Below are positions 3,874-57,291 of a stretch of 64,000 nucleotides of DNA, piece by piece (the stretch's first letter is position 1; each line of letters starts with the position of its first letter). The translations under genes were made by a program, and so were the position numbers. Origin of the DNA: Bdellovibrionota bacterium (lineage in GTDB: Bacteria; Bdellovibrionota_G; JALEGL01; JAGRMV01); contig JAWKOC010000001.1 in NCBI GenBank assembly GCA_041391365.1, forward strand, positions 514,068 through 578,067, written 5' to 3'. The notes beneath the pieces were generated by a model. That model ran no database searches. It was not told the DNA's origin and worked only from the letters and a program-made list of their open reading frames with translations.

Positions 3874-4787
3874 CCAATGCCCACCATTTCTGAGCTGACC
3901 GTGGCAAGCAACGAATCTTTTTGAACTTCAATGACCGAAATTGGGATAACTGCCAATGCAATCAACGCAATCAACGGATTCAGAACCGTTACTGCAACCC
4001 ACATGTTGCGCAAGGTTTTGGGAAAAACACCAGGTTCTTGCTCTTCAATATAATTTGCGGAACTTTCGAATCCACTGATTCCTAGCAAGGCCGCAGAAAA
4101 ACCAAAAAACAGTGCCGAGATCAATCCATATTCACTTGGTGCATGCCAATTTTTGATCAACACGGAGGGATCATGAAACAAATAGCCCAACCCAATGACG
4201 GAAAAGATCCCCAAGGTCAGCAGGTGAAACACAAAAATACACAGAGCCACGACAGCGGATTCCCCAATTCCCCAAATGGCAAGAAGTGCGAAAATGGAAA
4301 GAAGAACGACGGTGGAAAAAACAATGGGAAGTCCTCCAGGCAATAGTGTTCCCAAATACTCTACAGCTGTTTTTGCACTGATGCATGCGGTCGCTAAATA
4401 AGAGAGAAGAGTCATGCACGCCGCAATCGAGGCTTTGAGTTTGGTTGTTGTGTTGAGCAGTGCGTTGTAGGCCCCGCCATTGAGGGGAAGTGCATCTCCA
4501 ACTTCAGAATAGATGAATCGATACAAATAAAGAAGTCCACCTACCATGAGCAACACAAGTGGGGAGTAAACTCCTGCATAAGCCGTTGCGATCGCTGCAA
4601 CATACAAACAACTTGACGTGATGTCGTTTCCGCAGATGCCTGTAGCTAACCATTGGCCAAGTTTTTGGTGTTTTTTGGGGACAATATCTTGTCCTGCTCT
4701 TGCTTTGTGAGCTGCAGCCCCTCGTTTGCTCGGGTTTTCTTTGATGGAGAAAGGTTCGGATAGTTTCTCCCAATTCCATTTGGCCAT
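3870..4787 (-). CDS. APC-superfamily amino acid/cation permease, N-terminal membrane fragment (gene split by a 1-nt frame break near 3871-3875)
   Basis: Multiple TM helices with a typical APC pattern (GAYNALL, GFESSANYIEE). Ends ...SSEMVGIG-stop exactly where the next ORF begins. Confidence 0.8.
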   Translation of the reverse strand: MAKWNWEKLSEPFSIKENPSKRGAAAHKARAGQDIVPKKHQKLGQWLATGICGNDITSSCLYVAAIATAYAGVYSPLVLLMVGGLLYLYRFIYSEVGDALPLNGGAYNALLNTTTKLKASIAACMTLLSYLATACISAKTAVEYLGTLLPGGLPIVFSTVVLLSIFALLAIWGIGESAVVALCIFVFHLLTLGIFSVIGLGYLFHDPSVLIKNWHAPSEYGLISALFFGFSAALLGISGFESSANYIEEQEPGVFPKTLRNMWVAVTVLNPLIALIALAVIPISVIEVQKDSLLATVSSEMVGIG

Positions 4788-10901: not shown

Positions 10902-11264
10902 TTATTTTCCAAGAATGAGTTTGATGCTCGCAACCAGCATCATAACCCCAAAAGCTACCTTTAGATTTTTTGCAGGCACATGTTGGGCAATCAAAGCCCC
11001 CACCGCAACACCCACAAAAATACCCAATGCCACCATCAGTGAACTTTTGATGGGTATGCTGTATTTGTTGTAGTATTGGAATGCACCCAACATTCCTACG
11101 GGCAGTAGCATAGCGATCAGAGAGATGCCTTGGGCTTCATGCTGGCTGTGGTGAAAAAAAATCACCAAGGCCGGAACCATAAGAATTCCACCGCCTACAC
11201 CAAATATTCCGGAAAATACTCCGGTAACTGCTCCTAACACCAAGTATGCATAAAGCGAGTTCAT
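10902..11264 (-). CDS. TauE/SafE-family (DUF81) membrane protein, short form
   Basis: GIFGVGGGILMVPALV motif and four TM helices. Start at MNSLYAYL forms an ATGA overlap with the upstream stop. Confidence 0.75.
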   Translation of the reverse strand: MNSLYAYLVLGAVTGVFSGIFGVGGGILMVPALVIFFHHSQHEAQGISLIAMLLPVGMLGAFQYYNKYSIPIKSSLMVALGIFVGVAVGALIAQHVPAKNLKVAFGVMMLVASIKLILGK

Positions 11265-11695
11265 CGCGTAGGAAGCACTTTGGGCGCAATCCACGTCGAT
11301 TTTACAGTCTTTTCAAAAGGACCGTAAAAAGATCTGCAGGAAAGCGTATAAATCAAGGTGACATTGGGTGGAACAGAATCTTTGGTGTTGGGGTTGAGAA
11401 GTCCACACTGAAACTCATTCAAAAAGTTATAGGCACGAAGACCTTTTCGGGTTTCTCCCGGGCGCAAGGATTCACTCAAAAATGAGTAAAACTGCACGAC
11501 AGGCTTTCCAAGCCATATCTCAACATTGATCCCATAAATTTGTAGTTCGCGAGGCAGTAGATTTTCGACATCCACAGCGAGTTCCACATAGGGAAGGGGG
11601 TGAGTTTTGATGGTCAAGAACCTCTCATGCTGGCTTGCACAAGAGCGAATTTGAGTTTTTTTGCCAGCTTTCTGGAAAAATCTGTTTGCGAACAA
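11261..11695 (-). CDS. hypothetical protein (5' end probably lost by a frame break in a 7-nt homopolymer at 11656-11662; likely true start ATG 11742)
   Basis: AAGGAG plus 7 nt plus ATG at 11742 opens MEVRKPITCPEHSAGDCSQTDFSRKLAKK. This joins the 144-aa ORF if the A run (minus strand) is one base longer. Confidence 0.5.
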   Translation of the reverse strand: MFANRFFQKAGKKTQIRSCASQHERFLTIKTHPLPYVELAVDVENLLPRELQIYGINVEIWLGKPVVQFYSFLSESLRPGETRKGLRAYNFLNEFQCGLLNPNTKDSVPPNVTLIYTLSCRSFYGPFEKTVKSTWIAPKVLPTR

Positions 11696-11762: not shown

Positions 11763-12806
11763 TCATAGTTGAGAAAACGTCATGATGGACGAAACCTCAG
11801 GACGAAACAAAAACTGACTGTGGTCTATATCATTCTCTGGGCCAGCTTCGCAAGCTACAATCAATCGTAGTTCAAATTGCCCAGATCCACTTCCTCGTAG
11901 AATGTAGGTTACTTTATTTATAGCCTTTTTTGAGTCTACAGAGTGGGGCAAAAGCTGATCGAAAACCAAGAAAGCATCGACAAGATCAGAAGCGAAGCGA
12001 TCACCAAAACCAACAAATTCCTCGAAGGTGCATTCAAGTTCTGTGGTCGTTTCAAAGGAGTGCTTGTCATGGGGTAAGGGACGGGTTGCAAAGTATTGCA
12101 AGTACATATGGTCAAATTGTCGCTGCGTATGCGTGCAGATCAATTGATATAAGTCTAAGAGATCAGAAACGTAATTTTCATGGGTCGCCAGAATGAGAAA
12201 TTCAGAAATGAGCGTATGTCTTCCAACTTGGGTTTCAACAGCTCGAATCAAATAGGGGAAAGTTTGTTTTTGAAACCAACGACTATGTCTCAATGAAAAG
12301 TCCTGATGTTGATGATGGCCATCTTGACAGTGAAGAGAAAAATCTTCGAACATGGAATACACCTGTGAAGACTTTAGTTGCAAATGGGTCGCGAAAGGTT
12401 TGGAAAAGCATCCTATGAAACGCAAAACATTTTCCATACGATCCGCAAAAGGCAAATGAATCTGTAGGTTCTTTCCATCAAAAATGAGCTGGATCTGATC
12501 TTTGCTTCCCGTAGATTGAGGGGCGACGACAAAGGGAATTTTTTGTTTTGTAAGATCATGAAGTTTTGTTTTTAGATCTCTTATGGATTGTTCTTGATTT
12601 GTAGAATATCGATGATGATACCCAAAAGATCTGATCCAGTGTTGATTCAATTCAGACAATGTTGATGTATTTTGGGTTGAAATTCGGGCTGAAATCATTT
12701 CTATCAAAGCCGTTGAATCAATGGCCGAAGAAATTTTTTGAAAACAAGACCAAGCTTGTTCAAAGGAAGAAAAATCCTGGTCTGCAATGTAGGTAGATTC
12801 AGGCAT
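11763..12806 (-). CDS. hypothetical protein, translationally coupled to E1 beta
   Basis: 347-codon ORF whose start lies 1 nt after the E1 beta stop. No recognisable motif; contains a His-rich patch, CQDGHHQHQD. Confidence 0.6.
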   Translation of the reverse strand: MPESTYIADQDFSSFEQAWSCFQKISSAIDSTALIEMISARISTQNTSTLSELNQHWIRSFGYHHRYSTNQEQSIRDLKTKLHDLTKQKIPFVVAPQSTGSKDQIQLIFDGKNLQIHLPFADRMENVLRFIGCFSKPFATHLQLKSSQVYSMFEDFSLHCQDGHHQHQDFSLRHSRWFQKQTFPYLIRAVETQVGRHTLISEFLILATHENYVSDLLDLYQLICTHTQRQFDHMYLQYFATRPLPHDKHSFETTTELECTFEEFVGFGDRFASDLVDAFLVFDQLLPHSVDSKKAINKVTYILRGSGSGQFELRLIVACEAGPENDIDHSQFLFRPEVSSIMTFSQL

Positions 12807-12807
12807 C

Positions 12808-13866
12808 TTATGCTTGCGTCTGACAAAGTTGTATCATTGCGTCCTGTATCGATTTTTTTTGAGGCACTTGAACACTTTCCAACGTCCATGCCAATCCAAT
12901 TCCAGGAGTGTTTGCACCGGCCAAAAGTTTGGGGGCTGCTTTGAGTGAATAGAAACAATGTTCGGAAATTTTTCGTAGAATGTGTTCTCCAAAGTTTGTC
13001 ATTTCTGTGTCTTCGTTGACCACCAACACTCGACCTGTTTTGTTCACAGAGTCATACAATGCTTGTTCATCAAGCGGAATCAAGGTTCGTACATCAATGA
13101 CTTCAATGGAATAGCCATGCTGATCCAAACATTCTTTGGCCGCACTTACACACAAGGGCAGTGTTCTTCCGTAACTGATGACGGTAAGATCACGTCCTTC
13201 CACACAGGTCTTGGATTTTCCAAGAGGAATTTCAAAATCTTCAAGTTTGGGCCAATCAGGTTTCCATGACTTTCGATCTCCAACGGGAGCATCAATCATT
13301 GCAGACAATTGCTTTGAATCTTCTGGTTCTCCAGGAATTTTTTCTTCTCCTTGTGCGCGAATCAGGGCTTTGGGATACATGAACAGTACTGGATTTGGAT
13401 CTTTGATCGCTGAAATCAAAAGTCCGTAAGTGTCTTTTGGATTTGAAGTCAACACAACTTTCATGCCTGGAATGTGTGTCGCAATGGAATCAAAGGAGTG
13501 GGAGTGATAAATAGAGCCGTGAATTCCTGTACCAACAGGGGTCATGATCACCATAGCCAATGGAAACTGTCCTGCACTTGTCCACAATGTGTTGCCTGCA
13601 ATTTTTAACAAATCAATGGTATTGAAAATATAGTCACAAAACTGAATTTCTGCGACGGGTTTTTGGTCTGCCATGGCAAGACCAATGGCCATACCGATGA
13701 TTCCTCGTTCGTCGAGAGGAGTGTTCCAGGCTTTCTCCAATCCCTGTGTGCAAGTAAATACACCTCCCAGCGGAGCTCCAACATCTTCTCCGAAAATATC
13801 CTGCACTCCAAGTTCGGTTTCTCCTTTGTGGAGTGCCATGCGTATGGCTTGGGCAATGGTTGCCAT
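12808..13866 (-). CDS. branched-chain 2-oxoacid dehydrogenase E1 component, beta subunit
   Basis: FGEDVGAPLGGVFTCTQGL, NTPLDERGIIGMAIGLA, AEIQFCDYIF. About 30 extra residues before the PLGKS motif. Confidence 0.9.
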   Translation of the reverse strand: MATIAQAIRMALHKGETELGVQDIFGEDVGAPLGGVFTCTQGLEKAWNTPLDERGIIGMAIGLAMADQKPVAEIQFCDYIFNTIDLLKIAGNTLWTSAGQFPLAMVIMTPVGTGIHGSIYHSHSFDSIATHIPGMKVVLTSNPKDTYGLLISAIKDPNPVLFMYPKALIRAQGEEKIPGEPEDSKQLSAMIDAPVGDRKSWKPDWPKLEDFEIPLGKSKTCVEGRDLTVISYGRTLPLCVSAAKECLDQHGYSIEVIDVRTLIPLDEQALYDSVNKTGRVLVVNEDTEMTNFGEHILRKISEHCFYSLKAAPKLLAGANTPGIGLAWTLESVQVPQKKSIQDAMIQLCQTQA

Positions 13867-14831
13867 CAGTGAGTCTCCTTGAAGGTGTGGTCAAAAATGG
13901 TTTCTCCTGAAGGGAAGGGTTCCTCTCGAACTTTTTTGAGATCTTCCAAAGCTTGTTCTTCGTATTCTTTTCGAATGGAATCACAATCTTCTTGTGCAAA
14001 AACTTGTTCTTTGATGAGCACCTGTTCAAAATCTGTAATGCAATCAATTTCATGGTCGACACGATTTCCACCGGAAGATGAAGAATGTCCATGCAATCGA
14101 GATACATAGGCTTCCAAGCAAAAAGGTTTGCGTTCCTTTCGAACATAATCCATGGCCTGCTCAATTTTTCGATAGGAGGCAATTGGATCATTTCCATTGA
14201 CGGTTCCCCATTTGATGCCAAATCCTTCGGCCCGTTTTGCAATCACTTTGTCGCCATGTACTTGATCAAAAGGTGTAGAAATCCCAAACTGATTGTTCGT
14301 GACAATGATCAAGATGGGTAGTTCTTGTCCAGGTCGACTGCTCCAATTCAAACAGGTAGCAAAATCTCCCTCCGCCGCCAGCATCTCCCCTGTCACAATC
14401 GTAATGCCTTGGCCTCCGTGTTTTCGCTGAGCGTGAGCTGTTCCTATGGCAATCGAATACTGCACTTCAATGGGGGAACTCACAGGCATAACATTCCACT
14501 CTTTGATTGCGTAGTGGCTCACAAAGTTTCTGCCTTGAGAAAAAGGATCTGTTTTTCGATTGGCCATTTGTCGAATGCTGTCAATCATGGGTGAGCCCAT
14601 GGCCAACAAGGATGCAGATGCACGATAATGAAAATGACAATAGTCAAAATCTAGGCCTTGTCCTTTGCGAATCAAAAGCCCTAGAGGGACATTGAAAGCT
14701 TCTTCTCCCGGACCACCAATCCAAAAATACCCATCTTCAGATTTGCTCATTTTGATGAGACGTTCTTCCAATACTCGCGCCTGTACCATCAAACGATAGA
14801 TGTTTTCCAATTCTAGTTTTGTCAAACCCAT
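13866..14831 (-). CDS. branched-chain 2-oxoacid dehydrogenase E1 component, alpha subunit (divergent)
   Basis: HYRASASLLAMG, ...EGDFATCLNW...IIVTNNQFGIST, VNGNDP. The ThDP motif reads GEM instead of GDG. Confidence 0.85.
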   Translation of the reverse strand: MGLTKLELENIYRLMVQARVLEERLIKMSKSEDGYFWIGGPGEEAFNVPLGLLIRKGQGLDFDYCHFHYRASASLLAMGSPMIDSIRQMANRKTDPFSQGRNFVSHYAIKEWNVMPVSSPIEVQYSIAIGTAHAQRKHGGQGITIVTGEMLAAEGDFATCLNWSSRPGQELPILIIVTNNQFGISTPFDQVHGDKVIAKRAEGFGIKWGTVNGNDPIASYRKIEQAMDYVRKERKPFCLEAYVSRLHGHSSSSGGNRVDHEIDCITDFEQVLIKEQVFAQEDCDSIRKEYEEQALEDLKKVREEPFPSGETIFDHTFKETH

Positions 14832-14834
14832 CTT

Positions 14835-15506
14835 TTAGGTCCGGTTGGATGGTTGGATTTGATTTTTGTTGGAAGATGACTGAGTTTTTTTTCGAGGCGC
14901 AATATGAATGGGAAGACCCAGAGTCGTTTCTGCGGTTTCCATCATGATTTCTCCAAGGGTTGGATGAGGATGTACCGTAAGAGCAATATCATCAACAACC
15001 GCCCCCATTTCAATGGCCAAACTTGCTTCACTGATCAAGTCGGAGGCATGTGCACCAATGATATGAACGCCCAATACTTTTCGTGACGATTTTTCAGCAA
15101 TCATTTTGACAAATCCTTCACTGGAATTGGTCGACAAAGCTCTTCCCAAAGCAACAAAGGGAAACTTTCCAGTGATGTAGTCAATGTTTTGTTCTTTGGC
15201 TTGCTCTTCACTGATTCCTACAGAGGCGACTTCGGGGTCTGTAAAGATCGCTCCGGGCATCGCGCGTACATCATAGAGAGTTTCATGTCCTGCGATGTTT
15301 TCTGCGGCAATGATTCCTTGTTTGGATGCGCGGTGAGCAAGAAGGGGACCTCCAGTAACGTCGCCGATTGCATAAATGTGTGAAACATTGGTTTGCATCT
15401 TGTCATTGACGGAAATCTTTCCTTTCTCTACGGTCACACCTGCTTTTTCAGCGCTGACAACATCTGCATAAGGTCTTCGCCCAACGGCGAGAAGAATCTT
15501 TCGCAA
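14835..15506 (-). CDS. lpdA: dihydrolipoyl dehydrogenase (E3), C-terminal fragment (frame break at 15499-15501)
   Basis: KILLAVGRRP, IYAIGDV, and the interface-domain HPHPTLGE motif. Joins ...TISCE of the N-fragment if the A3 run (minus strand) is A4. Confidence 0.85.
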   Translation of the reverse strand: MRKILLAVGRRPYADVVSAEKAGVTVEKGKISVNDKMQTNVSHIYAIGDVTGGPLLAHRASKQGIIAAENIAGHETLYDVRAMPGAIFTDPEVASVGISEEQAKEQNIDYITGKFPFVALGRALSTNSSEGFVKMIAEKSSRKVLGVHIIGAHASDLISEASLAIEMGAVVDDIALTVHPHPTLGEIMMETAETTLGLPIHIAPRKKTQSSSNKNQIQPSNRT

Positions 15507-16300
15507 GAAATGGTTTTTGCTCCGTCTTTGGTTTCCACACTCAACTCAATTCCATGCGAGGTTTTTTTGTAGGAAGAGGCTTTGGAAGATAAGTACAAAT
15601 CCAATCCTTTTTTCTTAGCAATTCTGCCCAGCTCTTTTGCAACTTCTTGATCCACACCTGGAAGCAACTGATCCGTCAACTCAATGATCGAGACTTTGGC
15701 CCCTAGTTTTTTGTAAAGCATGCCGATTTCTAAACCGATCACGCCACCACCAATGACCGCAAGTGCATCAGGAACTTTTGTCCAATCCAATGCTTCCCTA
15801 GAATCAAATACAGACGTTCCATCGATGGCAAACCCAGGAATCTCTATGGTTTTTGAACCGCACGCAATGACGGCTTGCTCAAATTCGATCAAATAGTTTT
15901 TTCCATTTCCCGTTTGAACTTCTACCGCATTGGAAGACACAAAATGCGCTTGGCCTTTAAAAATTTGTCCACCTGAGTTTTTTACCAATCCTGCAATGCC
16001 GCTGGTAAGTTTTTCGATCACAGATTTTTTCCATGCTTGTGTTTTGGCAAGATCGATGGAAACTTCTTTGCAAGATAGTCCCATTTCAGAGGATGATTGC
16101 ATGTTTTCATAGGTTTTGGCGGCATGGATCAAAGCCTTGGAGGGAATGCATCCCCAATTCAAACAAACACCTCCCATGTTATCTTTGTCAATCAGGGCAA
16201 CTTGTTTTCCCAATTGCCCCAAGCGAATGGCAGCCACATATCCACCGGGACCGGCTCCAATGACAACAACTTGTTTAGAAATTTTTTCTGTTTGAACCAT
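15434..16300 (-). CDS. lpdA: dihydrolipoyl dehydrogenase (E3), N-terminal fragment
   Basis: VVVIGAGPGGYVAAIR, redox centre GGVCLNWGCIPSK, second Rossmann VIGGGVIGLE. Confidence 0.85.
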   Translation of the reverse strand: MVQTEKISKQVVVIGAGPGGYVAAIRLGQLGKQVALIDKDNMGGVCLNWGCIPSKALIHAAKTYENMQSSSEMGLSCKEVSIDLAKTQAWKKSVIEKLTSGIAGLVKNSGGQIFKGQAHFVSSNAVEVQTGNGKNYLIEFEQAVIACGSKTIEIPGFAIDGTSVFDSREALDWTKVPDALAVIGGGVIGLEIGMLYKKLGAKVSIIELTDQLLPGVDQEVAKELGRIAKKKGLDLYLSSKASSYKKTSHGIELSVETKDGAKTISCERFFSPLGEDLMQMLSALKKQV

Positions 16301-16321: not shown

Positions 16322-18472
16322 TTAGAGTAGAAGACTTGCTGGAGTTTCAAGATAACTGATCAAAGCTTTGGTGAATTTGGCTCCCAAAGCACCATCTACG
16401 ACACGATGATCAATCGACACTGACACATTGGCCATTTGCCGTGCTACGATTTCACCATTGCGTACAACCGGACGTTCTTTGATGGCGTAAAAGCCCAGAA
16501 TTCCAACCTGAGGATAGTTGATGATCGGTGTTGCGTAGGTGCCCGCCAATGTTCCCAAACTGGTGATGGTGAAGGTTCCACCTTGCAAATCGTTGGGAGA
16601 AAGTTTTCCTTCTTGCGCTTTTTTGGCAAGAGATGAAATGTTTTGCGCAATTTCGAGCAGCCCCATTTGATCTGCATTATGAATAACAGGAACGACCAGG
16701 TCTTCATCTTTGGTCGCAACAGCAATGCCAATGTTATAATAATGTTTAACAACAATTTCACCTTGCTCTTCGTCCAAACTTGCATTGAGCATGGGGTACT
16801 GCTTCAATGCTGCACAAAGTGATTTTACCAAAAAGGGTAGATAGCTAAGTTTGATTCCCTGATCTTGGGCCAACTCTTTCAAGGCATTTCGTGCATCCAC
16901 CAAACCTGTTGCATCCAACTCATCCATGTGGGAAAAATGCGCAGCATGATCGACGGATTTCCGCATATTTTGTGCAATTACTTTTCGAATTCCTTTGAGG
17001 GGAATTCGTTCTTCATGTTGAACCGTATTTTTTGAGGTTGATCCCGTGGATGACGATGATCCTGTGACATGTTGCTTAACATCTTCCAAGGTCACACGAC
17101 CGTGATCTCCCGTTGCACGAACTTCGTTCAAATCAATTCCCTTTTCTCTGGCCAATTTGCGTGTGTAGGGGGAGGCCAGAATAGAGGACGCATCCGCAGG
17201 GGAATGCCCGTTGACCATGGGTTGAATGGGAGAGGAAAAAACAGGTTTCACATCTTTGGGTGCAGAAGATGACGCTGGCGCAGATACGCGCTCAGTTTGA
17301 TTTTTTTCTGAAGTGGTTTGAGAAGAATCACTGGATCCTGTTTGAATCAGTGCAAGTGGTGCTCCAACTTTTACGTTTTCGCCAGAGGCACCAAACGTTT
17401 TTTCAATGACTCCTTTTTTGGGTGAAGCAATTTCTACCGTGGCCTTGTCGGTCATGACTTCTACAATGGGCTGATCTTCCTCCACGGAATCGCCTTGGCC
17501 TACCAGCCATTGTACGATTTCTCCCTCTGATACGCCTTCTCCAATGTCCGGTAATTTGAACTCATACGCCATGCAACAGTTCCCTTCTGATTGTGTGTTT
17601 CGAGATCGAATCATGGAAGAAATATAATATTCTCCAGCACGATACGAACTACGTACCAATGGCCCTGAGGCCACATACGAAAAGCCATAGCTTACTGCCA
17701 GGTCTTTCCATTCTTCAAACTTTTTTGGTGAAATAAATTCGATCACTTTGTGATGCTTTTGACTGGGTTGAAGATATTGACCGATGGTCAAAAAATCTAC
17801 CCCCGCACTTCGTAAATCCTGAAAAGCTTCTTTGAGTTCTTGTTCTGTTTCGCCTAGACCTACCATGATGGAAGATTTCGTATACTGAGTCGGATTTTTT
17901 GCTTTGCAGTACGAGAGAACATTCAGAGATTTTTTGTATCCAGATCGTTGATCTCGAATGGATCGAGTCAATCGCTCTACAACTTCTATGTTGTGAGCCA
18001 ACACTTCTGGACGGGATTCCAAGAGTCGATCGAGCGCGGATGGATCTGCATTGAAGTCTGGAATGAGTGCTTCTACCAATACTCCCGGACATTTTTCATG
18101 AATCACTTGGATGGTTTTTGCAAAATGAGATGATCCGAAATCAGGTAAGTCATCTCGATCCACGGAAGTCAGGACTACATACTCAAGACCCATCAGTGCA
18201 ACCGTTTGGGCTGACTTTTCAGGTTCATTTTCGTCGGGAGGAAGAGACGGGATCCCACTTTTTACCGCACAAAATCGACATCCACGTGTGCAGGTATCTC
18301 CCATGAGCATGAGGGTCGCTGTACCGCCTGACCAGCATTCTGCAATGTTTGGGCATTTGGCTTCTTCACATACGGTGTGAAGATTGCGGGATCGGAGCAT
18401 CGACGAAATTTCTTTGTATTTTTCCCCGGAAGGAAGTCGAACTTTGATCCAGTCTGGTTTGGCTTGTCTCAC
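16322..18472 (-). CDS. single 716-codon ORF: lipoyl synthase (residues 1-300, 17573-18472) running in frame into dihydrolipoamide acyltransferase E2 (residues 301-716, ATG 17572)
   Basis: LipA part: CEEAKCPNIAECW, radical-SAM CTRGCRFCAV, VRSSYRAGEYY. E2 part: MAYEFKLPDIGEG, lipoyl-lysine MTDKA, PSBD ASPYTRKLAREKGIDL, catalytic DHRVVDG. No stop codon between them. GAAGGGAA lies 8 nt before the E2 ATG. Confidence 0.8.
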   Translation of the reverse strand: MRQAKPDWIKVRLPSGEKYKEISSMLRSRNLHTVCEEAKCPNIAECWSGGTATLMLMGDTCTRGCRFCAVKSGIPSLPPDENEPEKSAQTVALMGLEYVVLTSVDRDDLPDFGSSHFAKTIQVIHEKCPGVLVEALIPDFNADPSALDRLLESRPEVLAHNIEVVERLTRSIRDQRSGYKKSLNVLSYCKAKNPTQYTKSSIMVGLGETEQELKEAFQDLRSAGVDFLTIGQYLQPSQKHHKVIEFISPKKFEEWKDLAVSYGFSYVASGPLVRSSYRAGEYYISSMIRSRNTQSEGNCCMAYEFKLPDIGEGVSEGEIVQWLVGQGDSVEEDQPIVEVMTDKATVEIASPKKGVIEKTFGASGENVKVGAPLALIQTGSSDSSQTTSEKNQTERVSAPASSSAPKDVKPVFSSPIQPMVNGHSPADASSILASPYTRKLAREKGIDLNEVRATGDHGRVTLEDVKQHVTGSSSSTGSTSKNTVQHEERIPLKGIRKVIAQNMRKSVDHAAHFSHMDELDATGLVDARNALKELAQDQGIKLSYLPFLVKSLCAALKQYPMLNASLDEEQGEIVVKHYYNIGIAVATKDEDLVVPVIHNADQMGLLEIAQNISSLAKKAQEGKLSPNDLQGGTFTITSLGTLAGTYATPIINYPQVGILGFYAIKERPVVRNGEIVARQMANVSVSIDHRVVDGALGAKFTKALISYLETPASLLL

Positions 18473-18531
18473 GGCAGACTATATATATACCTGAGTGAGA
18501 GTCCTCGCAAGTTGATCAAGGAGAAAGGAGG

Positions 18532-56286: not shown

Positions 56287-56980
56287 CTTTCGCTGCTCTA
56301 ACTCTTCGATTGATTTCATCAGCAGCATCTACAGCTTGATCCCACACGGTGTAAATTTGCATTTTTTTTCCAGAAACCAAATCTCCGACCACGAAAAAGT
56401 TTTCAATATTGCTTTGATATTTTTGATCTACGATGGCCCGTCCTTCTGAATCGACTTTTCCTCCGAGATCAACCAAAAGTTGATTGTAGGGAATGATTCC
56501 CAAAGCTACAATGGACATTTGAGTTGGAACACGGGTTCCATCTTCCAAAAGAAATCCTTCCAAAGAAACTTTTGGATCTCCTAGAATAGATTCAATGGGA
56601 CTTTCATAAATCTCAATGTGATATTTTTGAACCAAATCCAATGCTTTTTGAGAAAACTGTGTAGGCAAACCTGTCGTCAAGATCGCGATCTGATCATGAT
56701 GATATCGTTCCGCCATCAATTTGCCGATGTAGATAGCAGAATCTTTGTTTCCCAAAATACTTAGAGATTTTCCGAATGTTTTATGACCGTCACATCGAAC
56801 ACAGTAGATGAGATCCCCACGGTTTGCAAAAGGAAAAAAAGCCTCAATCTTTTCTCCAATTTTAGGTTGTACATCCATAATCCCCGTTGCCAACACAACA
56901 TGTTTTGCAAAATCCAAAGAGTAAATTATATCACCTTCTTTTTTTGGAGTGAATCCAAAACAATCCATCTTTTTTTTCAA
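56267..56980 (-). CDS. thioredoxin-reductase-like FAD oxidoreductase, C-terminal fragment (frame break at 56981-56991)
   Basis: Redox-active CVRCDG (compare CATCDG of TrxB) and VVGDLVSG. Joins the N-fragment if the T4 run (minus strand) is T5. Confidence 0.75.
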   Translation of the reverse strand: MKKKMDCFGFTPKKEGDIIYSLDFAKHVVLATGIMDVQPKIGEKIEAFFPFANRGDLIYCVRCDGHKTFGKSLSILGNKDSAIYIGKLMAERYHHDQIAILTTGLPTQFSQKALDLVQKYHIEIYESPIESILGDPKVSLEGFLLEDGTRVPTQMSIVALGIIPYNQLLVDLGGKVDSEGRAIVDQKYQSNIENFFVVGDLVSGKKMQIYTVWDQAVDAADEINRRVRAAKATHSNE

Positions 56981-57291
56981 TCGAAAACTCCAGTTTTCCT
57001 CACGTCAGAGTACGAATGAAGCGTGCGATGCTTCTCAATCCATGCCAAGGTTTTCTTAGTCCCATCCGAAATGGGGTTGGCGAGATCATGCATTCCCGGT
57101 ATGTTTTCAACTTCAAAAACCCATGTTGCACGAGCTTGCTTTTTGTTCAGAGAGTTCCCCAAAAAAAGAAGACTATGATCCATATTGAGTACAGCTCTCA
57201 AATGCGCCATGGTCCCTGCAGCACCTCCTCCTATGATGGCCACATCGTGAACAAAGTGCATTTGTTTTGAAGGATTTTCAGTAGAAGTCAT
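56977..57291 (-). CDS. thioredoxin-reductase-like FAD oxidoreductase, N-terminal fragment
   Basis: Dinucleotide fold HDVAIIGGGAAGTMA. Ends ...KTGVFD-stop immediately before the next fragment. Confidence 0.75.
   Translation of the reverse strand: MTSTENPSKQMHFVHDVAIIGGGAAGTMAHLRAVLNMDHSLLFLGNSLNKKQARATWVFEVENIPGMHDLANPISDGTKKTLAWIEKHRTLHSYSDVRKTGVFD

Follow-up and report, generated by a model that had tools for sequence, protein, structure and literature searches.

An apparent lipoyl synthase–E2 fusion in a Bdellovibrionota genome probably reflects one base missing from the assembly

Lipoyl synthase (LipA) is recognized by a radical-SAM CX3CX2C motif, an N-terminal auxiliary-cluster CX4CX5C motif, and a C-terminal RSSY motif. 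Fused forms of LipA have been described, including the lipoate-protein ligase/lipoyl synthase of NCBIfam NF053790 (LplA_LipA_fuse) and LipA proteins with PF21948, and they indicate that LipA tolerates partners from the lipoylation pathway. In these proteins the partner is an enzyme, carrying a ligase or octanoyltransferase domain, and not the acceptor protein, and the fusions recur across many genomes. A literature search for a natural fusion of LipA with a lipoyl domain returned no report among the titles and abstract openings covered, and the passages of PMC10332631 found with fusion terms mention only LplA/LplB-type fusions. A different kind of fused ORF arises in error-prone assemblies, where spurious joining or splitting of reading frames is marked by a bias toward −1 shifts, a location in short homopolymers, hits in essential genes, and conservation that stays intact after the break.

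The window analyzed here is a stretch of 64,000 nucleotides from a Bdellovibrionota bacterium (assembly GCA_041391365.1, contig JAWKOC010000001.1; genome G000), in which lipA reads in frame into the gene for the E2 lipoyl-domain protein. With a probability of about 0.9, the lipA–E2 fusion is an assembly artefact caused by one missing base, and the real locus consists of two ordinary overlapping genes. The features of the junction are as follows:

16322–18472, minus strand: merged lipA–E2 ORF as assembled, 716 aa, GTG start, from the ORF listing
17573–18472, minus strand: lipA (lipoyl synthase) in its assembled form, GTG start at 18472, with matches to TIGR00510, LIAS_N, and Radical_SAM
16322–17572, minus strand: E2 (dihydrolipoyllysine-residue acyltransferase), 416 aa from its own ATG, with lipoyl domain, peripheral subunit-binding domain (PSBD), and catalytic domain
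17581–17587, minus strand: Shine-Dalgarno-like GAAGGGA, 8 nt ahead of the E2 ATG, encoded by the conserved Glu-Gly of the lipA tail
17573–17610, minus strand: zone short of one base relative to the ancestral lipA frame, with the −1 frame open, from the alignment with the same-genus genome G001
17562–17564, minus strand: latent lipA stop TGA within E2 codons 3–4 (CAT GGC GTA TGA, −1 frame)

The ORF listing confirmed the 716-codon minus-strand frame that the earlier note had described, and Pfam and NCBIfam domains together with the catalytic motifs bore out its reading of a complete LipA followed by a complete E2 in a single frame. Pfam places LIAS_N and Radical_SAM at residues 4–220, Biotin_lipoyl at 304–376, E3_binding at 431–466, and 2-oxoacid_dh at 485–716, so that a whole LipA (residues 1 to about 290) runs without a stop into a whole E2 beginning at Met301 (ATG 17572). 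The LipA half scores 380.5 bits against the curated TIGR00510 cut-off of 310.25, with profile positions 16–300 of 302 covered by residues 4–289, which is essentially the full-length profile. Its translation includes CTRGCRFC (radical-SAM), CEEAKCPNIAEC (N-terminal auxiliary cluster), and VRSSYRAG (C-terminal RSSY). The closest LipA among 5.8 billion proteins is the 304-aa P0121 of G001, which shares 77% identity and is named at NCBI 'MAG: lipoyl synthase [Bdellovibrionales bacterium]'. In the E2 half, the lipoyl motif MTDKA, the peripheral subunit-binding domain, and DHRVVDG are all present (PF00364, 75 bits; PF02817, 57 bits; PF00198, 290.6 bits), and with regard to substrate class every NCBIfam equivalog model scores below its cut-off. 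The E2 orthologs share the start MA(F/Y)EF(K/N)LPDIGEG. In a separate observation, G004, a member of the same family, has an E2 with two tandem lipoyl domains in a 580-aa stop-to-stop frame (locus L004, 1156 and 1537), and the window E2 has one.

To place the junction among its relatives, 30 related genomes were searched with the 716-aa protein, and for 11 loci the region around the E2 start was translated in three frames. In relatives from the same taxonomic order and family, lipA lies immediately ahead of E2. The earlier note had raised the possibility that orthologous loci carry a stop between the two genes, and 11 of 11 do, with lipA and E2 as separate genes. A short spacer separates them in G003, G004, G005, G006, G008, and G010, and the layout of G013 differs in having a separate ORF between the two. 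In G001, G002, G007, and G009, lipA extends in the −1 frame into the beginning of E2; the lipA stop of the first three is the TGA of E2 codons 3–4 (ATG GCN TTT GA), and that of G009 is a TAA two codons further on. A fusion ancestral to the clade was considered in view of open-frame lengths of 846 aa (G003) and 938 aa (G004) that cover both halves. Those lengths read through stops, however, and the presence of several stops between lipA and E2 in both genomes, with stops or separate frames in the others, refutes an ancestral fusion, the probability of which is negligible.

Comparison with G001 shows how little separates the window from the overlapping arrangement. The two loci share the gene order (GGDEF gene, lipA, E2, E3, E1 alpha, E1 beta), the GTG start of lipA with a promoter-like block before it, a lipA tail of the form EG...HG(I/V), a TGA in E2 codons 3–4, and GAAGG as the E2 Shine-Dalgarno. 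The G001 LipA has the C-terminus ...QQMEGIDHGI, its gene ending as ...MEGIDHGI-TGA over ATGGCATTTGA, and the tails of three related LipA proteins are MEGIDHGI (P0121), KEGVDHGV (P0135), and KEGVDHVV (P0132). In contrast to G001, the window tail has one codon more between EG and HG and is one base short (modulo 3), which leaves its stop out of frame. The junction reads ...TCAGAAGGGAACTGTTGCATGGCGTATGAG..., free of stops, with codons ...TCAGAAGGGAACTGTTGC ATG GCG TAT GAG... in which the E2 ATG occupies 17572–17570, and the merged frame gives the peptide ...TQSEGNCCMAYEFK. From ATGATTCGA to the E2 ATG (ATGGC), the window is 1 nt shorter (modulo 3) than G001. The alignment with the G001 LipA stays in the lipA frame as far as 17582, including the conserved Glu-Gly, and the −1 frame is open across 17573–17610 and ends ...LLHGV-TGA. 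In G001, G002, and G007, the lipA stop has the position that this latent TGA (17564–17562) occupies in the window. Because the ...HGV-TGA ending is kept but lies one frame away, the sequence is that of a lipA tail with one base missing; and since the latent TGA is combined with a 1-nt (modulo 3) deficit against G001, the ancestral arrangement is intact but for one base.

The alternative that the earlier note itself offered, in which an absent base hides a lipA ending in ...HGV-TGA that overlaps the E2 start, therefore matches the architecture of G001. Its position for the AA run, 17581–17582, was off by one base: the AA is at 17581–17580 and the GGG at 17584–17582. Its observation that the E2 ATG at 17572 keeps a purine-rich Shine-Dalgarno was correct, with GAAGGGA at 17587–17581 and GAAGGA at the equivalent site of G001. 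A Shine-Dalgarno inside the tail of the upstream gene is the usual mark of coupled but separate cistrons. The locus thus has a stop within the downstream start and a ribosome-binding site within the upstream gene, both kept in relatives, with the window stop one frame off. Most likely, the missing base falls within 17573–17584, in the GGG, AA, or TT run downstream of the conserved GAAGG, and the true lipA, once this base is counted, most likely has the TGA of 17564–17562 as its stop and a length of about 303 aa, against 304 in G001. These candidate runs are short (2–3 nt), below the length of many other error sites in the genome, and the exact missing base is not placeable.

The junction is not the only broken frame in this operon. 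The next gene downstream, together with the two that follow it, is listed below:

14835–16300, minus strand: lpd (E3, dihydrolipoyl dehydrogenase) in two frames, an A missing at AAA 15499–15501
13866–14831, minus strand: E1 alpha, Pfam E1_dh; NCBIfam PDH E1 alpha below cut-off
12808–13866, minus strand: E1 beta, Pfam Transket_pyr and Transketolase_C; NCBIfam PDH E1 beta below cut-off

The lpd break lies 1.3 kb downstream of the lipA/E2 junction. The gene is divided between the ORFs 15434–16300 and 14835–15506, over which Pfam Pyr_redox_2 is split as 1–230 and 230–291, and in a tblastn search with the G003 E3 the HSPs of frames −1 and −3 meet at ISCE|KILLAVGRRP. The assembly has CGAAAG at this site, where CGAAAAG is needed for ISCEKILLAVGRRP.

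Similar breaks occur throughout the genome. A total of 252 kb of G001 was fetched, and its ORFs were compared with the whole window genome. Twelve of 137 orthologs are frameshifted in G000, with 16 shifts in about 149 kb, mostly at homopolymers among the sites inspected. Fourteen of the 16 shifts are −1; of the remaining two, both +1, one is ambiguous. The runs at the inspected sites are mostly A, T, or G runs of 3–8 nt, such as T6 for T7, A5 for A6, and GGG for GGGG. Conversely, when the ORFs of G000 were compared with G001 DNA, about 146 kb yielded two cases: one is the lipA/E2 boundary, and the other is ambiguous and located in a region already broken in G000. Within the window, the reading frame of a 616-aa permease-like gene (APC), which is unbroken in G001, changes at GGTGGGCAT (3879–3885, minus strand), where a G appears to have been lost from a G run; identity to G001 is 79% ahead of this break and 86% beyond it. 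A frame change also occurs beside an A8 run (GAAAAAAAAG; 56968–56989, minus strand) in a 346-aa gene resembling those of FAD/NAD-binding oxidoreductases. Homopolymer-length spectra of G000 and G001 differ by no clear deficit except in runs of at least 9, a comparison that is powerless at about one error per 9 kb.

The identity of the affected genes is informative. NCBIfam confirmed rplL (L7/L12), rplJ (L10), ftsH, and scpA among the broken genes, and RecG-like and Mfd-like ORFs, named from their sequence alone, are also interrupted. Two −1 shifts interrupt rplJ, and a single +1 shift interrupts rplL (G000 contig C1, 728556–729117, outside the window); of all the evidence, these breaks point most strongly to errors rather than biology. 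A cell without functional rplL, rplJ, and ftsH is not viable. Since loss of these genes is lethal and transcriptional slippage could not rescue them at such short runs, the shifts are consensus errors. An excess over a close relative across the genome, a −1 bias, a location in homopolymers, and damage to essential genes are all found together, as in other error-prone assemblies. The rate of about one per 9 kb corresponds to roughly 200 errors in the 2.08-Mb, six-contig assembly.

The proximity of the broken lpd could instead suggest decay of the whole operon, in which the deletion would be real but confined to a minority or strain-level variant or to a decaying locus, and the fusion would be functionally meaningless. 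The same breaks affect ribosomal proteins and FtsH genome-wide, however, and make operon decay unneeded as an explanation; protein identity to relatives after each break is the same as or higher than before it; and lipA, E2, and lpd are without nonsense mutations or larger deletions. A real but functionally meaningless deletion of this kind, as a variant or through decay, is highly improbable.

The remaining alternative is a real and recent 1-nt deletion that fuses LipA to E2 in a polypeptide of about 78 kDa. The sulfur-inserting enzyme would then be tethered to its octanoyl-lipoyl-domain substrate, and the internal Shine-Dalgarno and ATG, which are retained, might allow free E2 to be produced as well. 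The uninterrupted ORF, with both halves complete and all catalytic motifs in place, is compatible with such a protein, as is the existence of LipA fusions with lipoylation enzymes (NF053790 and the PF21948 proteins); with about 10 residues between the end of the LipA domain and the lipoyl domain, a fusion may be sterically conceivable. A real deletion would also yield an identical assembled sequence.

The search for comparable proteins argues against a genuine fusion. With LipA as query and lengths restricted to 394–1253 aa, the best 120 matches from a library of 5.8 billion proteins included no E2 domains; the long LipA proteins found were eukaryotic forms with transit peptides and LipA joined to the ligase-type domain PF21948. 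The full 716-aa sequence was also run by HMMER against 1.84 billion representatives, and none of the best 150 matches spans both halves. The top match, at 459 bits, is a 428-aa E2 alone, and a true fusion would score above all of the HMMER matches even at 40% identity in both halves. In contrast to the known LipA fusions, the LipA–E2 arrangement was found neither in the 11 related loci nor among these best matches from the searched libraries. A search for another assembly of the same species gave none: the junction pattern with a variable gap had no match in metagenome_contigs or genome_contigs, exact-protein look-ups with the GGDEF neighbor, the 716-aa ORF, and E2 alone gave no match either, and by protein similarity the nearest LipA is the one at 77% identity.

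The claim of a genuine enzyme–substrate fusion is not upheld, given the absence of such a fusion from the related loci and from the best matches in two large protein libraries, in a genome rich in single-base homopolymer deletions. The cell would have to tolerate a LipA–E2 protein that is unique among billions of proteins, and the latent stop and the Shine-Dalgarno are untouched, as expected if the organism is unchanged. The rates point in the same direction. With −1 artefacts at about one per 9 kb here, against zero to one per 146 kb in G001, an artefact is favored by more than 10 to 1, and the probability that any one stretch of 40 nt contains a −1 shift is about 0.4% at the assembly error rate and less than 0.03% at the real-mutation rate of G001. 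A real deletion is accordingly a quite improbable origin of the merged frame, and the junction base is very probably absent from the assembly rather than from the organism, judging from the comparison of sequences.

Under the preferred reading of an assembly artefact, lipA and E2 would be separate, translationally coupled genes in an ordinary minus-strand operon. The true lipA would end ...EG-x3-HGV-TGA, its stop lying in E2 codons 3–4 and the two genes overlapping by 11 nt including the stop, and translation of E2 would begin at its own ATG, preceded by a GAAGG Shine-Dalgarno that forms part of the lipA tail. One base would have been dropped in the last 12–40 nt or so of lipA, most likely in a short run (GGG, AA, or TT), as one of some 200 homopolymer bases that went uncalled in this way, and its loss would place lipA in the E2 frame and create a spurious 716-codon ORF. 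An indel artefact normally splits one gene. Here it merges two, because the next gene overlaps in the neighboring frame and the shift removes the stop.

The operon is conserved and lies on the minus strand, where lipA is followed by E2, E3 (lpd), E1 alpha, and E1 beta; a GGDEF gene lies upstream. Directly downstream of E1 beta is a 347-aa ORF (11763–12806, minus strand) without a Pfam or NCBIfam match, and the two ORFs that follow it, at 11261–11695 and 10902–11294, overlap in different frames and may represent another frame break. One further feature lies ahead of lipA:

18482–18510, minus strand: candidate promoter TTGCGA–17 nt–TATATA, 9 nt upstream of the lipA GTG

The hexamers at 18510–18505 and 18487–18482, the 17-nt spacer, and the 9-nt distance to the GTG are as the earlier note gave them, whereas the consensus scan left the site unscored, below its threshold. 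A block CTTGCGA-N17-TATATATA, 9–10 nt before the lipA GTG, is kept in G001 (locus L003, 1460–1500) with an otherwise diverged spacer; the conserved block is also given as CTTGCGA...GGTATATATA. No Shine-Dalgarno is visible upstream of the lipA GTG. The conservation suggests a lipA promoter with a very short leader, for which a nearly leaderless mRNA is plausible on sequence grounds.

If the fusion were true, a covalent link between lipoyl synthase and the lipoyl-domain protein that it modifies would be known for the first time, as an unprecedented enzyme–substrate tether in cofactor assembly that would be worth expressing. As it stands, the locus is a cautionary case. About one gene in ten of this assembly carries a −1 homopolymer error, and between neighbors that overlap in different frames an error of this kind yields a plausible-looking fusion. 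Unusual architectures and split genes from this genome should therefore be discounted until the assembly has been polished.
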